DNA of 55,541 bases, taken from positions 1 to 55,541 of the forward strand of contig JAZNOR010000080.1 in NCBI GenBank assembly GCA_045589235.1, read 5' to 3'. A program made the position numbers and the translations under genes. The stretch comes from Eubacteriales bacterium (GTDB lineage Bacteria > Bacillota > Clostridia > Oscillospirales > JAAYXM01). Under the pieces are notes generated by a model, which was given only the letters and a program-made list of their open reading frames with translations, searched no databases and was not told where the DNA came from. Of the stretch, positions 31,651 to 36,691 are shown piece by piece (position 1 is the stretch's first letter; each line of letters begins with the position of its first letter).

Positions 31651-31662
31651 GGGGTGTTTAAG

Positions 31663-32658
31663 ATGAAAAAGACAATTAAAATTTTAAGCTTTGTTCTCGC
31701 AATTTTAATGTTCTCTGCCTGCTCGGGCGATAAAACGCTAATCAAAGCGCGCCTTGATGACGATTGGGGCTATGTAAATGAAAACGGTAAATTTAAAATT
31801 GAAGCTGAATTTGATGAAGCGTATGCATTCTCTGAAGGTGTTGCAGTTGTTGTTGAGGACGAAAAATACGGCGTTATCAACGAAAACGGAAAGTTTAAAA
31901 TTAAGCCTGAGTATGAATATATCGGCGATTTCAAGGACGGCAAGGCGGTATTCAGTCAGGATGGCAAATACGGAATTATCAATAAAAACGGCAAAATCGT
32001 TTTGGAAGCAGCCTTTAGCTGGCTCTCTGATTTTTCAGACGGGCTTGCGGTTGCGGTCGATGATTTTGGAAAATTCGGATTCGTTAATGAAAAGGGTAGC
32101 TATGTAATTACACCGAATTTTATAGAGGCATATCCGTTTACCGAAGGTCTTGCTGCAGTTAAGATCGGTGAGAAATGGGGATTTGTTGACACCGTCGGAA
32201 ATCTTGTAATCAATGCGCAATACGACGAGGTAAGACCGTTTTCTGACGGCCTTGCACAAATCAAGGTAAATGATAAGTTCGGCTTTGTTGATAAAACAGG
32301 CGCGGTTGTTATAAAGCCTGAGCTTGAGATGGCGCTTAGCTTCTCAGAGGGACTTGCCGTTGCGTTTAAAAACTTTAAATATGGCTTTATTGATAAAACA
32401 GGTGAATTTGTTATAGATGCGCAATTTAATGTCGCAATGAGCTTTAATAACGGCGTTGCGCCAGTTACCATTCCGGGAAGCTCTTTTGTCGGTTTTATTG
32501 ATAAATCGGGTGATTTTGTTATTCCAAGTGAATACAATGTAATTTGGTATCAATGGAATCCGCAGGAATACTCTGGCTATTTGCCTGTTGAAAAAGGCGG
32601 CAAATTCGTTCTTTTAGACACGAAGGGCAGAGAAGTTTACGTTGAAGCAGATGATTAA
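31663..32658 (+). CDS. WG/KWG-repeat lipoprotein
   Basis: Lipobox LMFSAC; about 7 repeats of (W/Y/F)G(Y/F)(I/V)(N/D)xxG...FSEGLA. Confidence 0.88.
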   Translation: MKKTIKILSFVLAILMFSACSGDKTLIKARLDDDWGYVNENGKFKIEAEFDEAYAFSEGVAVVVEDEKYGVINENGKFKIKPEYEYIGDFKDGKAVFSQDGKYGIINKNGKIVLEAAFSWLSDFSDGLAVAVDDFGKFGFVNEKGSYVITPNFIEAYPFTEGLAAVKIGEKWGFVDTVGNLVINAQYDEVRPFSDGLAQIKVNDKFGFVDKTGAVVIKPELEMALSFSEGLAVAFKNFKYGFIDKTGEFVIDAQFNVAMSFNNGVAPVTIPGSSFVGFIDKSGDFVIPSEYNVIWYQWNPQEYSGYLPVEKGGKFVLLDTKGREVYVEADD

Positions 32659-32773: not shown

Positions 32774-32835
32774 CACAAAAAATATTGCGGTATTTTTGTG
32801 CGTATGTTTACAAAAAATGGCGAATTTTGTATAAT
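32774..32835 (+). promoter_or_regulatory. lrp-pnt promoter with upstream inverted repeat and Rex-like box
   Basis: TTTACA (32807-32812), 17 bp spacer, TATAAT (32830-32835); CACAAAAAATA-TTGCGG-TATTTTTGTG inverted repeat; TTGTGCGTATGTTTACAA (32796-32813) resembles the Rex box TTGTGAA-N4-TTCACAA. Confidence 0.55.
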
Positions 32836-32864: not shown

Positions 32865-33314
32865 GTGGATGCAATTGATTACGGTATTCTTGAATGTTTA
32901 AAGGAAAATGCACGCGAGAATGCCACGAACATTGGTGCAAAAATCAATTTATCTACCTCTGCCGTAATCGAGCGAATTAAAAAACTTGAGGCGGCAGGAA
33001 TAATCAAGCAGTATACTACGCTTATAAATCAGGAAGCGCTCGGGCGCGAGCTTATGGCTTTTATTTACGTAAGTCTTGAAAATCCGAAGCACTATGAAAA
33101 TTTCGTTAAAAAGGTAGAATTACACAATGAGATTTCAGAGTGCTATTACATTGCGGGCGATTTTGATTTTATTTTAAAAGTGGTAACAAAATCAGGTAAA
33201 GCGCTCGAGGGAATTTTAAATTACATTAAATCAATTGAGGGAGTTTCGCTTACGCGCACATCTGTTGTTCTGTCAACAAATAAGCACGAGGTGTCAATCC
33301 TCCCTGATAAATAA
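32865..33314 (+). CDS. Lrp/AsnC-family transcriptional regulator
   Basis: IDYGILECLKENAR...LSTSAVIERIKKLEAAGII HTH; ECYYIAGDFDFILKV RAM domain. Confidence 0.92.
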   Translation: MDAIDYGILECLKENARENATNIGAKINLSTSAVIERIKKLEAAGIIKQYTTLINQEALGRELMAFIYVSLENPKHYENFVKKVELHNEISECYYIAGDFDFILKVVTKSGKALEGILNYIKSIEGVSLTRTSVVLSTNKHEVSILPDK

Positions 33315-33332: not shown

Positions 33333-34490
33333 ATGGTTATCGGTATTCCAAAGGAAATTATGCACGGCGAGGGCAGAGTATCTGCAATCCCGGAAACAGT
33401 CGCAAAACTTGTAGCTGACGGTTATGAGGTTTTGGTTGAAAACACGGCAGGTGAAGCAGCGTTCTTCTCAGATGCTGATTACGCAGCTGCAGGAGCTACA
33501 ATGATAGCAGACTGTGAGGAGTTATACGCAAAGTCTGACATCATCTTAAAGGTTAAAGAGCCGCAGTTTAACGAGGCAAAGAATAAGCACGAGGTTGATA
33601 TGATGCATAAAGGTCAATATCTTATCACCTTTATCCATCCGGCATCGCCTGTAAACCACGAAATGGTTCGCAATATGGCGGCAAAGGGCATTATCGGTTT
33701 AACCCTTGACGGTGTTCCGAGAATTTCGCGCGCACAGAATTTGGATGCGCTCACTTCGATGAGTACTTGTGCCGGATATAAGGGAATTCTTATGGCGGCA
33801 AATGATTTGGCAAAATTTATTCCGCAGCTCTTCTGCGCTGTCGGTATGGTAAAGCCATGTAACGCACTTGTTATCGGTACAGGTGTTGCGGGTCTTCAGG
33901 CTCTTGCAACAGCGAAAAGACTCGGCGCTGTTACATACGCGGCTGACATTCGCCCGGCAGCAGCTGAACAGGCAATGAGTCTTGGTGCAAAGATTGTTGA
34001 CACTGGTGTTCCTGCTGAGGTTGCAGTAGGTGAGGGCGGCTATGCTAACGCTCTCAGCGAAGAGTGGATTTTAAAGGAGCGCGCAGCGCTTGCTGATACC
34101 ATCAAGGATATGGACATCATCTTCTGCTCAGCGCTCGTACCATCAAAGCTCGCTCCGGTAATTATTACTGAAGAGATGGTTAAGTCAATGAAACCGGGCT
34201 CTGTAATTGTTGATATTTCAATTGACCAGGGCGGTAACTGTGCAATCACTGTTCCGGGTGAGAAGGCAGTTTTACATAATGTTACAATCGAGGGTATCAA
34301 GAACATTCCGGGTCTTCTTCCGACCAGCTCAACCTGGATGTTTGCTCATAATATTTATAACCTTGTTAAGTACTTATCCAAGGACGGAAGCTTTAAACTT
34401 GATAATTCAGACGAAATCGTCCGCGGTATCTTAACAACAATCGACGGTGAAATCGTCCATAAGGGCGCACTTGAGGCAATGAGCAAATAA
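33333..34490 (+). CDS. pntA: NAD(P) transhydrogenase alpha subunit part 1 (domain I)
   Basis: IGIPKE, PRISRAQNLDAL (RQD loop), GTGVAGLQALATAKRLGA, DIR, DISIDQGGNC. Confidence 0.9.
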   Translation: MVIGIPKEIMHGEGRVSAIPETVAKLVADGYEVLVENTAGEAAFFSDADYAAAGATMIADCEELYAKSDIILKVKEPQFNEAKNKHEVDMMHKGQYLITFIHPASPVNHEMVRNMAAKGIIGLTLDGVPRISRAQNLDALTSMSTCAGYKGILMAANDLAKFIPQLFCAVGMVKPCNALVIGTGVAGLQALATAKRLGAVTYAADIRPAAAEQAMSLGAKIVDTGVPAEVAVGEGGYANALSEEWILKERAALADTIKDMDIIFCSALVPSKLAPVIITEEMVKSMKPGSVIVDISIDQGGNCAITVPGEKAVLHNVTIEGIKNIPGLLPTSSTWMFAHNIYNLVKYLSKDGSFKLDNSDEIVRGILTTIDGEIVHKGALEAMSK

Positions 34491-34504: not shown

Positions 34505-34795
34505 GTGGGTTATATTTTAATTGCAGTATTTGTAATTGCGGCAATCGTCGGCTATTTCATAATCAACAAAGTGCCGACGCTTCTGCACACTCCGCTTATG
34601 TCGGGAATGAATGCGCTCTCCGGTATTACCGTACTTGGTGCACTCACAACTCTCGCAGTTACACTTAAAGATAACGATCCGATTCTATCAGTTATTGTCG
34701 GAATGCTCGCAATCATCTTTGCTATGATAAATGTAGCGGGTGGCTTTGCGGTAACGGGAAGAATGCTCAAGATGTTTAAAAAGGAGGACAAATAA
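34505..34795 (+). CDS. pntA: NAD(P) transhydrogenase alpha subunit part 2 (membrane)
   Basis: VPTLLHTPLMSGMNALSG, INVAGGFAVTGRMLKMF. Confidence 0.92.
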   Translation: MGYILIAVFVIAAIVGYFIINKVPTLLHTPLMSGMNALSGITVLGALTTLAVTLKDNDPILSVIVGMLAIIFAMINVAGGFAVTGRMLKMFKKEDK

Positions 34796-36655
34796 GTGAT
34801 TTATTATATTATAAGCGCAGTCCTCGTTTTTGGCGTACTTGTTGGCATCAGTATGATGAGTAAAGTAAAGAGTGCAAATGCAGGTAATACTTTATCCGCA
34901 ATTTGCACTGTTATTGCAATCATCGTCGTTATGTATACAAATGAAATTTTAACCTCATGGCAGGCGCTGATTGCACTTGCGATCGGTACGGTTGTGGGTA
35001 TTGTGGGTGCATATAAGGTTAAGATGATTGAAATGCCGCAGGCAGTAGCATTACTTAACGGTCTCGGAGGTCTTGCATCCGCGCTTGTTGCTATCTTAAC
35101 CATTGCACAGGCTGAGGATAAGTTTGCGGTTATCGTAGGTGCCGTGGCACTCGTTGTCGGCGCGGTTACTTTTACGGGAAGTCTTATCGCGGCAGGAAAG
35201 CTACATAAATTGCTTCCACAAAAGCCTGTTGTGTGGAAATGCCATTCCACAATCGTTACGGTTACTTTAATTGCAACGGTGCTCAGCATGATTTTAGTTC
35301 CCGATTGCATTTGGTTGATTACAATTTTATCAGCATTCTTCGGCGTTGCATTCGCAATACGCGTTGGCGGTGCGGATATGCCGATAACAATTTCGCTTTT
35401 GAACTCACTTAGCGGTGTGGCAGGCGGTATTGCAGGTATCGCGGTTTATGACCCATTACTTGTTGCAATTGGCGGTATCGTCGGCGCATCCGGTCTTCTC
35501 TTAACACAGATTATGTGCAAGGCAATGAACCGTTCACTAGTTTCAATTTTATTTGGTACAGCACCGAAAAAGCCGATTAAAGTAGTTGAAGCTAAAGCTG
35601 AGCCTGAGCAGGTTGAAGCTAAAGAAGAAGTATCAATTTCTGATATTTTAACAAATGCAAAGAAAGTAATTCTCGTTCCGGGTTACGGAATGGCACTTGC
35701 TCAGGCACAGAGCGCAGTTAAGGCACTTGCTGATAAGCTTGAAGCAAAGGGTTGTGAAGTTAAGTTTGCAATCCATCCTGTAGCCGGCAGAATGCCGGGT
35801 CATATGAATGTTTTACTTTGCGAGGTAGATGTTCCGTATGATAAGTTATATGAGATGGAGGCAATAAATGGTGAATTTGCGGAATGCGATGCAGCAATTG
35901 TAATCGGCGCAAACGATGTAACAAATCCAGCGGCAAATACCGCAGAGGGAACACCGATTTACGGTATGCCGGTACTTAATGTAGCCGATGCAAAGAATAT
36001 CATAATCTGTAACTTTGACGATAAGCCGGGTTATGCAGGCGTTCCAAACCCGTTGTATTCTGACGGTCGTGCAATACTTAAATTCGGCGATGCTAAGGAA
36101 ACGGTAGCTGAGCTTTGTGATGCAATCGGTGCGCAGGATAAACCGCAGAAGAGTGATTCGGTTTCAGATATTCTTGCAAATGCAAAGAAAGTAATTCTCG
36201 TTCCGGGTTACGGAATGGCACTTGCTCAGGCACAGAGCGCAGTTAAGGCACTTGCTGATAAGCTTGAAGCAAAGGGTTGCGAGGTTAAGTTTGCAATCCA
36301 TCCTGTAGCAGGCAGAATGCCGGGGCATATGAATGTACTGCTGTGTGAGGTAGATGTTCCGTATGACAAGCTATATGAAATGGATGCTGTAAACGGTGAA
36401 TTTTCAGAATGCGACATTGCAATCGTAATCGGCGCAAATGACATAACAAATCCAGCGGCAAATACCGCAGAGGGAACACCGATTTACGGTATGCCTGTGC
36501 TTAATGTAGCAGATGCAAAGAATATTATCATCTGTAACTTCGACGATAAACCGGGTTACGCAGGGGTTCGGAACCCGTTATATACCGATGGACGTGCGAT
36601 ACTTAAATTCGGCGATGCAAAGGAAACTGTAGCCGAGCTAACAAACTCGTTTTAA
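34796..36655 (+). CDS. pntB: NAD(P) transhydrogenase beta subunit with duplicated domain III
   Basis: MIEMPQAVALLNG and GGADMPITISLLNS membrane motifs; two copies of PGYGMALAQAQ...HPVAGRMPGHMNVLL...GANDxTNPAA...GYAGVxNPLY. Confidence 0.92.
   Translation: MIYYIISAVLVFGVLVGISMMSKVKSANAGNTLSAICTVIAIIVVMYTNEILTSWQALIALAIGTVVGIVGAYKVKMIEMPQAVALLNGLGGLASALVAILTIAQAEDKFAVIVGAVALVVGAVTFTGSLIAAGKLHKLLPQKPVVWKCHSTIVTVTLIATVLSMILVPDCIWLITILSAFFGVAFAIRVGGADMPITISLLNSLSGVAGGIAGIAVYDPLLVAIGGIVGASGLLLTQIMCKAMNRSLVSILFGTAPKKPIKVVEAKAEPEQVEAKEEVSISDILTNAKKVILVPGYGMALAQAQSAVKALADKLEAKGCEVKFAIHPVAGRMPGHMNVLLCEVDVPYDKLYEMEAINGEFAECDAAIVIGANDVTNPAANTAEGTPIYGMPVLNVADAKNIIICNFDDKPGYAGVPNPLYSDGRAILKFGDAKETVAELCDAIGAQDKPQKSDSVSDILANAKKVILVPGYGMALAQAQSAVKALADKLEAKGCEVKFAIHPVAGRMPGHMNVLLCEVDVPYDKLYEMDAVNGEFSECDIAIVIGANDITNPAANTAEGTPIYGMPVLNVADAKNIIICNFDDKPGYAGVRNPLYTDGRAILKFGDAKETVAELTNSF
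35633..36652 (+). repeat. intragenic tandem duplication with 525 bp period (two domain III copies)
   Basis: 35652-35754 is identical to 36177-36279; the remainder differs mainly at synonymous sites. Confidence 0.95.
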
Positions 36656-36659
36656 TAAT

Positions 36660-36691
36660 AAAAAAGCAAGCTTATGTTAAGCTTGCTTTTT
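36660..36691. terminator. bidirectional terminator between pntB and rodA
   Basis: AAAAAGCAAGCTTA-TGT-TAAGCTTGCTTTTT. Confidence 0.75.

Follow-up and report, generated by a model that had tools for sequence, protein, structure and literature searches.

In the accessible text of PMC7614955 and PMC13635403, proton-translocating transhydrogenases are built from three domains (dI, dII and dIII) with one domain III per protomer, and the isoform survey in the accessible text of PMC7614955 contains α/β, α1/α2/β, αβ and βα forms only. The portions of the literature available to us describe a dIII that alternates between a face-down position on dII and a position next to dI, and a dI dimer, (dI)2, that binds one dIII in the isolated complex. 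Current cycle models have a single mobile dIII per protomer that moves in anti-phase with its partner. Here we describe a pntB gene, for the beta subunit of this membrane enzyme that transfers hydride between NADH and NADPH, whose predicted product carries two dIII modules, or heads, in tandem. It lies on a 55,541-nucleotide (nt) stretch of DNA from a Eubacteriales bacterium (assembly GCA_045589235.1, contig JAZNOR010000080.1, positions 1 to 55,541 of the forward strand; hereafter the window). Judged from its sequence, this pntB specifies the beta subunit of a proton-translocating transhydrogenase made of three subunits (PntAA + PntAB + PntB); the two heads are real and under selection, and the gene is the two-copy state of a PntB subfamily with one to five modules. 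Two to five selected heads do not fit the one-to-one picture of the cycle models.

Among described systems, the three-subunit transhydrogenase of Thermus thermophilus and Rhodospirillum rubrum (4o9u, 1e3t) shares with the window locus its gene order, its subunit split, a common fold and most dIII nucleotide-site residues; however, it has one dIII and a K-R-S motif (KRS), whereas the window has two dIII and N-F-D. The K-R-type three-subunit relatives examined also have an Asn at the position of E. coli betaHis91, as the window does. E. coli PntAB (cryo-EM 2026, PMC13635403) has a homologous dII and dIII, but a covalent link ties its dI to the membrane part, and it carries one dIII, the KRS motif and betaHis91, in each of which the window differs. 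Protist single-chain beta-alpha enzymes and an engineered single-subunit E. coli enzyme provide, in the accessible text of PMC7614955 and PMC13635403, examples of active enzymes in which a flexible linker and a further domain follow dIII; that appended domain is dI and not dIII, and each protomer again has one dIII. Publicly deposited multi-dIII PntB proteins, for example from Porphyromonas, Dysgonomonas, Desulfovibrio, Anaerococcus and Parabacteroides belong to the same subfamily as the window protein, with the N-x-D motif, a tandem array and short low-complexity linkers, although most carry three or four modules where the window has two. Their database annotation is simply 'NAD(P)(+) transhydrogenase subunit beta'. 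Full-text literature searches, with subscription journals and supplements outside their scope, found no description of a repeated dIII, which answers the call of an earlier interpretation made from the window's letters (the sequence-only reading) to check whether the architecture had already been characterised; the multi-head group of anaerobe transhydrogenases is apparently undescribed.

The window pntB (34796..36655, + strand, as are all of its parts) is a single open frame of 619 amino acids (aa) whose start abuts the stop of pntAB. An AlphaFold2 model built on a 14-row alignment (mean predicted local distance difference test score, pLDDT, 74.4) has nine helices followed by two α/β modules; the helices, H2-21 to H220-243, form the dII part of the protein (aa 1-255; 34796..35560). 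The tether connecting module 1 with the membrane (aa 256-279; 35561..35632) is predicted to be disordered, with pLDDT below 50 at residues 256-277. Module 1 (aa 280-440; 35633..36115), delimited by self-comparison at the 525-nt period and by alignment to solved dIII, has no true C-terminal ending (…AELTNSF) and continues into the inter-module linker CDAIGAQDKPQKSD (aa 441-454; 36116..36157), a unique stretch of 14 residues that is unlike the tether ahead of module 1 and falls below a pLDDT of 50 at residues 446-454. Module 2 (aa 455-615; 36158..36640) is followed by a 4-residue tail and the stop. Both modules align over their full length to solved dIII structures, and in both the HPVAGRMPGH loop also has pLDDT below 50. 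A separate start within the gene, from which the second head might be made on its own, found no support in the inter-module linker, which contains no in-frame ATG, GTG or TTG.

The repeat has a period of exactly 525 nt and is in frame. Self-comparison at this offset remained at background to approximately 35630, ran at 73-100% identity to approximately 36110 and then returned to background. The Pfam model PNTB (PF02233) matched the window protein in two stretches at 764.4 bits against a gathering cut-off of 31.7, and a six-frame search of the genome returned a full match at 34805-36118 (507.5 bits) together with a second, dIII-only match (profile positions 287-455) at 36140-36646 (265.6 bits) in the same open frame. 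Tandem Repeats Finder, for which 500 is the longest period reported, gave no rows for the repeat. The window PntB scored below the equivalog cut-off of NCBIfam NF006974, the model for Re/Si-specific NAD(P)+ transhydrogenase subunit beta (548.6 bits versus 689), and PntAA likewise fell short of its NCBIfam equivalog cut-off (368.7 versus 383). The open reading frame, the PNTB matches and the offset comparison bear out the 619-aa PntB with an in-frame, 525-bp dIII repeat that the sequence-only reading had described. At 175 aa the module period is among the shortest, with a range of 174-195 aa across the 120 best database proteins.

We assessed how common this architecture is in named genomes using the best 80 of 586 confirmed loci, 73 of which have a complete pntB. 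One module was present in 33 of these complete genes, two in 18, three in 17 and four in 5, so that 40 of the 73 are multi-copy. The multi-copy carriers include isolates, namely an Anaerococcus sp. with four modules and two Parabacteroides sp. with two each, and the labels of the metagenome-assembled genomes (MAGs) in the 80-locus set cover many Clostridia, Porphyromonas, Proteiniphilum, Dysgonomonas, Tannerellaceae, Prevotella, Treponema, Anaerolineaceae and Haloplasmataceae. The 120 best database homologues, a ranking that favours proteins with more copies, comprise 61 proteins with three modules, 57 with four, one N-terminally truncated protein with five, and the window's own with two; some multi-module database proteins sit on contigs longer than 2 Mb. 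Five modules occur in six database clusters (proteins longer than 1,084 aa), and by motif count no repeated dIII was found in eukaryotic single-chain enzymes among proteins of that length. A protein of 1150 aa labelled Myxococcota (P0128), a two-module N-x-D PntB, also has a precomputed hit to PF00155 (aminotransferase class I/II), suggesting a further fusion.

In an evenly drawn sample of the window's class, PNTB scored above the cut-off in 19 of 399 scored genomes. Besides the window, two modules were present in G183, three in G372 and at least two in G223 (at a contig end), the gene of G283 was cut, and the remaining 14 genomes had one. An equivalent sample of Bacteroidia, the class of a Porphyromonas genome, had PNTB in 263 of 401 genomes, with 126 match rows beyond those listed; more than two matches occurred in the centre genome only, nine others had two (either two heads or two genes), and G529 and G607 had one match each. 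In a set of 41 genomes made up of relatives of the window genome and G000 itself, five gave a PNTB match, and the four other members of the genus gave none, a patchiness compatible with gain by transfer or with repeated loss. The multi-head architecture is therefore widespread yet in the minority, and concentrated in particular anaerobic lineages. The hosts include many anaerobes of the gut, the mouth and digesters (Porphyromonas, Parabacteroides, Treponema and many Clostridia), in which the supply of NADPH is little understood. The sequence-only reading was right that the two-copy gene is real; it did not foresee that the gene is one of a one-to-five-copy subfamily and not singular, that this subfamily is without KRS, or that its dI is untethered.

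The two window copies differ at 53 of 483 nt (89.0% identity), and 41 of the 53 differences fall at third codon positions. Synonymous differences affect 37 codons and non-synonymous differences 9, which amounts to 9 amino-acid changes in 161 residues, or 8 within the 158-residue core. The NG86 method gave non-synonymous and synonymous divergences (dN and dS) of 0.030 and 0.527 and a ratio of 0.057, and YN00 a ratio of 0.043. One block of 103 nt is identical between copy 1 (35652..35754, +) and copy 2 (36177..36279, +); an identical run of at least this length was reached in 5 of 100,000 codon shuffles (mean 39, 95th percentile 56), and the block is likely a gene-conversion tract. The sequence-only reading had counted 8 substitutions in about 159 residues, seen synonymous changes far outnumber replacements, placed both copies under purifying selection and noted a 103 bp identical block that could reflect gene conversion; each of these statements agrees with the values given here, down to the exact 103 nt, and the block behaves as a tract in the shuffles.

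A low dN/dS is insufficient to dismiss a chimera of two strains, because orthologues too differ mainly at synonymous sites, and the junction between the modules is the better evidence. The window genome is a MAG of 94 contigs that is 85.7% complete, pntB ends at a contig edge in or before dIII in G005, G018, G223, G283, L009, L011, L016, L030 and L053, and assembly could have collapsed a third copy if it matched one of the two exactly. All of this lends some credence to an assembly artefact, either a chimera of strains or a miscounted number of modules. Chimeras, however, join homologous points, whereas the junction here is the unique in-frame 14-residue linker, and both its length and its AIGA…S.SV pattern recur in an independent MAG with two modules (L008, 78% identity). 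The longest identical stretch of 103 nt is presumably below common read lengths, and the two-copy genes among the complete relatives include those of isolates. We consider an artefact highly improbable, and the earlier claim that the repeat is no assembly echo holds given the junction in L008 and the multi-copy majority of the complete relatives. Broken pntB genes were noted at contigs G005:C137, G018:C71, G223:C34/C74 and G283:C16/C6. Short-read assemblies break at the repeat, so that copy numbers in MAGs may be under-counted; such breakage, together with pipelines that name the proteins ordinary PntB, lets the architecture go unnoticed.

To compare copies beyond the window, we assembled 104 within-gene copy pairs from the multi-copy loci plus the window over a 133-codon core. 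Nucleotide identity within genes had a median of 0.871 (range 0.712-1.0), and in the 89 of 104 pairs with usable dS the median dN/dS was 0.053 and the highest value 0.29. Because dN/dS is low while dS often exceeds 1, as it does in several lineages, the heads are old, intact and equally constrained. A duplication that is recent, neutral and bound to be lost or to decay would account for the 10 of 104 copy pairs that are at least 99% identical in DNA and for copy numbers that vary between close relatives: P0085 has four modules and P0114 three, and these modules are identical, which reflects either copy-number shifts on very short evolutionary time scales or an assembly difference. Against this stand the window dS of 0.53 at a dN/dS of 0.057, which points to long co-existence under constraint, the lineages in which modules remain intact at dS above 1, and the 40 complete multi-copy genes, in which no frame breaks were seen; we think neutral duplication very unlikely.

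We then examined how the modules relate to one another across proteins. A quick maximum-likelihood IQ-TREE phylogeny of 127 modules from 39 hand-picked proteins of 122 (83 left out) clustered modules by protein and not by array position. The two window modules pair with a Shimodaira-Hasegawa-like approximate likelihood ratio test (SH-aLRT) value of 99, and the surrounding clade holds three-copy proteins plus the single-copy L004 of the same family. Third-position identity was 0.31-0.37 between the window and L008 and 0.75-0.85 within each genome, despite their common junction. Since third-position identity within genomes exceeds that between genomes, the junction is shared and the 103-nt tract is identical, the pattern is that expected of an old array homogenised by gene conversion, with copy number altered by unequal exchange. 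That the two-headed architecture is real, under selection and of wide occurrence, taken together, we regard as close to certain.

We next considered whether the heads are equivalent. Across 14 two-copy proteins, 64 of 158 columns are invariant in module 1 and 64 in module 2, and 62 of these are common to both. Identity between proteins was 0.690 for module 1, 0.683 for module 2 and 0.687 for module 1 against module 2. The two modules are thus equally constrained and carry no positional signature, which disfavours the option raised by the sequence-only reading that one copy acts as a nucleotide sensor. Longer arrays behave less evenly: among 116 distinct proteins with at least three modules, the most divergent module is the last in 70, the first in 20 and a middle one in 4, with ties in 22, and last modules group across proteins in the module tree, though only in very close relatives (P0046/47/48 and P0051/56). 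These observations fit a division of labour in which one module, likeliest the terminal one, is a regulator, a nucleotide sensor or an NADP(H) store and catalysis is left to the membrane-proximal module alone. Such specialisation sits poorly with the common invariant sets and equal between-protein identities of the two-copy proteins, with gene conversion, which keeps modules alike, and with a maximum dN/dS of 0.29. Edge repeats of tandem arrays diverge more in any case, as they take part in less exchange. The divergence of last modules may reflect such edge effects or mild specialisation, and we rate a dedicated non-catalytic head as improbable.

The nucleotide site was compared with the NADP+-contacting dIII residues of the E. 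coli enzyme listed in the accessible text of PMC13635403. Both window modules keep P346, A348, G349 and A451, and in addition D392, Y431 and D450; the T393 position is V or I in the window modules and also V in a K-R-type control. The position of K424-R425-S426, the KRS motif of the NADP(H) site named in PMC9529548, is occupied by N406-F407-D408 in module 1 (36011-36019) and by N581-F582-D583 in module 2 (36536-36544). Across the 120 database proteins, N-[F/Y/L]-D stands in for KRS in all but one of 417 motif matches (416), and it does so in all 80 of the best named loci, and it is likewise present in single-head relatives such as L004. A census of the class sample, with 17 classifiable genomes, assigned 5 to the K-R type and 12 to the N-x-D type; multi-head genes occurred in 0 of the 5 and 3 of the 12, respectively (4 of 13 counting the window). 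All multi-head PntB examined fall in one N-x-D subfamily with a free soluble dI. We take K-R-S to hold the 2'-phosphate of NADP(H), and its loss across the subfamily raises the question of how NADP(H) is recognised. The notion that a basic residue moves between the 'NPAA[x]' and 'N.D.[y]PG' sites in compensatory covariation was dropped because no such swap appeared in 140 distinct first-module segments, where a basic residue was present at both sites in 60, at the second only in 51, at the first only in 13 and at neither in 16.

No multi-head protein examined retains K-R-S, the two window copies included, and multi-head genes are confined to the N-x-D subfamily; both facts allow for an altered chemistry. 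KRS-less heads might bind or release nucleotide differently, whether more weakly, with exchange that is not gated by dII, or with a changed preference, and the extra heads would then add largely channel-independent hydride transfer with soluble dI outside the proton-coupled cycle. However, the other E. coli site residues that we checked are conserved except for T393, and the census numbers are small. Single-head members have the same motif, which on its own leaves the repeat without explanation. The window dI retains an Asp that we take to be typical of NAD(H) sites, and the membrane domain and PntAB have been kept under conservation, pointing to a coupled enzyme. We judge altered chemistry unlikely, although less so than a specialised head. 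A similarly small chance attaches to a broader proposal, in which the N-x-D, free-dI, multi-head enzymes would be a functionally distinct class in anaerobes whose heads, without K-R-S, may exchange or choose nucleotide unlike any enzyme studied, and whose two-to-five-head array would serve as a relay or as a set of partly channel-independent hydride carriers; if so, the effective coupling of proton flow to hydride transfer, and not just its rate, would be altered.

In the dII channel, E. coli betaHis91, an essential protonatable residue, aligns with PntB Asn88 (35057-35059), and Asn is also present in three K-R-type three-subunit PntBs. His28 of PntAB (34586-34588), the sole His of that subunit, lies in a conserved HTPLMS and aligns with a His of E. 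coli PntA. In three-subunit enzymes the His of the alpha piece presumably takes over the role of the channel His.

The dI subunit was separate wherever it could be judged: 54 loci are clearly split, 16 have pntAA only and 3 have pntAB only, with 0 of 73 fused. According to the accessible text of PMC13635403, three-subunit enzymes are without a covalent dI tether, and anti-phase movement of dIII may be needed to retain (dI)2. Our most likely reading, to which we assign a probability of about 0.45-0.5, is a multi-head enzyme that serves both stations at once, with one head on dI, holding it or reacting with it, and another on the channel. In this subfamily dIII is a tandem array of one to five modules on short linkers predicted to be disordered, alongside a free soluble dI dimer; the modules would be functionally equivalent, and each head would alternate between the dII proton channel and dI. 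With several tethered heads, dII and dI could be engaged by different heads at the same time, so that dI would be kept on the complex, both stations would be more occupied and more flux would pass per membrane channel, with copy number as an evolutionary tuning knob. Of the functional options offered by the sequence-only reading, occupation of both poses at once would fit best, whereas the specialised sensor copy is disfavoured. Catalytic equivalence of the heads and their benefit are the parts that we infer, alongside an observed anatomy, selection, distribution and concerted evolution.

Several points weigh against the alternating multi-head enzyme. Extra heads are not required for retention of dI, because the 33 single-head members among the 73 complete genes also have a free dI. 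The association of split dI with multiple heads is confounded with phylogeny, as every related locus has a split dI at any copy number and the two are inseparable. The inter-module linker is only about 9-14 residues long, and the reach of module 2 to dII or dI is an assumption. The loss of KRS leaves canonical nucleotide handling in doubt on the sequence evidence, and a divergent last module could mean partial specialisation instead of equivalence.

A simpler role, in which the extra head is a passive anchor that stops the soluble dI dimer from leaving the membrane and makes no contribution to turnover, draws on the separate dI polypeptide at every related locus judged and on the accessible text of PMC13635403, which raises dI retention as a problem of three-subunit enzymes. 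An anchor would not need intact catalytic-site residues in every module, arrays of four to five heads surpass what anchoring one dI dimer calls for, and one head already suffices in the single-head members; pure retention is accordingly a minor possibility, on a par with altered chemistry. For the alternating multi-head enzyme, natural arrays of different lengths bear on whether heads not directly attached to dII can be coupled, whether head availability limits the rate, and how a free dI dimer is kept.

Lastly, we considered the surroundings of the gene. The genes pntAA, pntAB and pntB are adjacent on one strand, so that dI, dII and dIII are all encoded together. pntAA (33333..34490, +; Pfam AlaDh_PNT_N and AlaDh_PNT_C) encodes the soluble NAD(H)-binding dI as a separate polypeptide of 385 aa that covers positions 1-368 of a 510-position PntA model. 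pntAB (34505..34795, +; Pfam PNTB_4TM) encodes a 96-aa membrane piece of the alpha subunit with four transmembrane (4-TM) segments, which aligns with the C-terminus of E. coli PntA. At several related loci (L035, L036, L037, L049, L050, L064, L074, L077 and L078) the pntB frame extends roughly 80-150 aa further at its N-terminus and a separate pntAB went undetected; PntB may carry the 4-TM alpha piece as a fusion in these relatives.

The transcription unit appears, from sequence signals, to run from a promoter-like site through an AsnC-type regulator gene, pntAA, pntAB and pntB to a terminator. The promoter-like site, TTTACA-17-TATAAT (32807..32835, +), matches the consensus at 11 of 12 positions; the evidence is this match alone, and sites of the kind are as numerous in shuffled sequence as in the region itself. 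The first gene of the unit (32865..33314, +) encodes an AsnC/Lrp-type regulator (Pfam AsnC_trans_reg and HTH_AsnC-type), and 19 of the 80 related loci, mostly those of closer Clostridia, have a homologue of it in the same upstream position and orientation. Directly after the pntB stop, at a distance of 5 nt, is a bidirectional terminator-like hairpin with a 14-pair stem (36661..36691, no strand assigned), and the next gene is on the opposite strand. A decayed additional dIII module was looked for downstream of pntB and is absent. Upstream of the unit, the N-terminus encoded by an open reading frame of 334 aa (31654-32658) resembles that of a lipoprotein, and a unit of approximately the KxGxINxxGxxVIxP type recurs many times within the protein.

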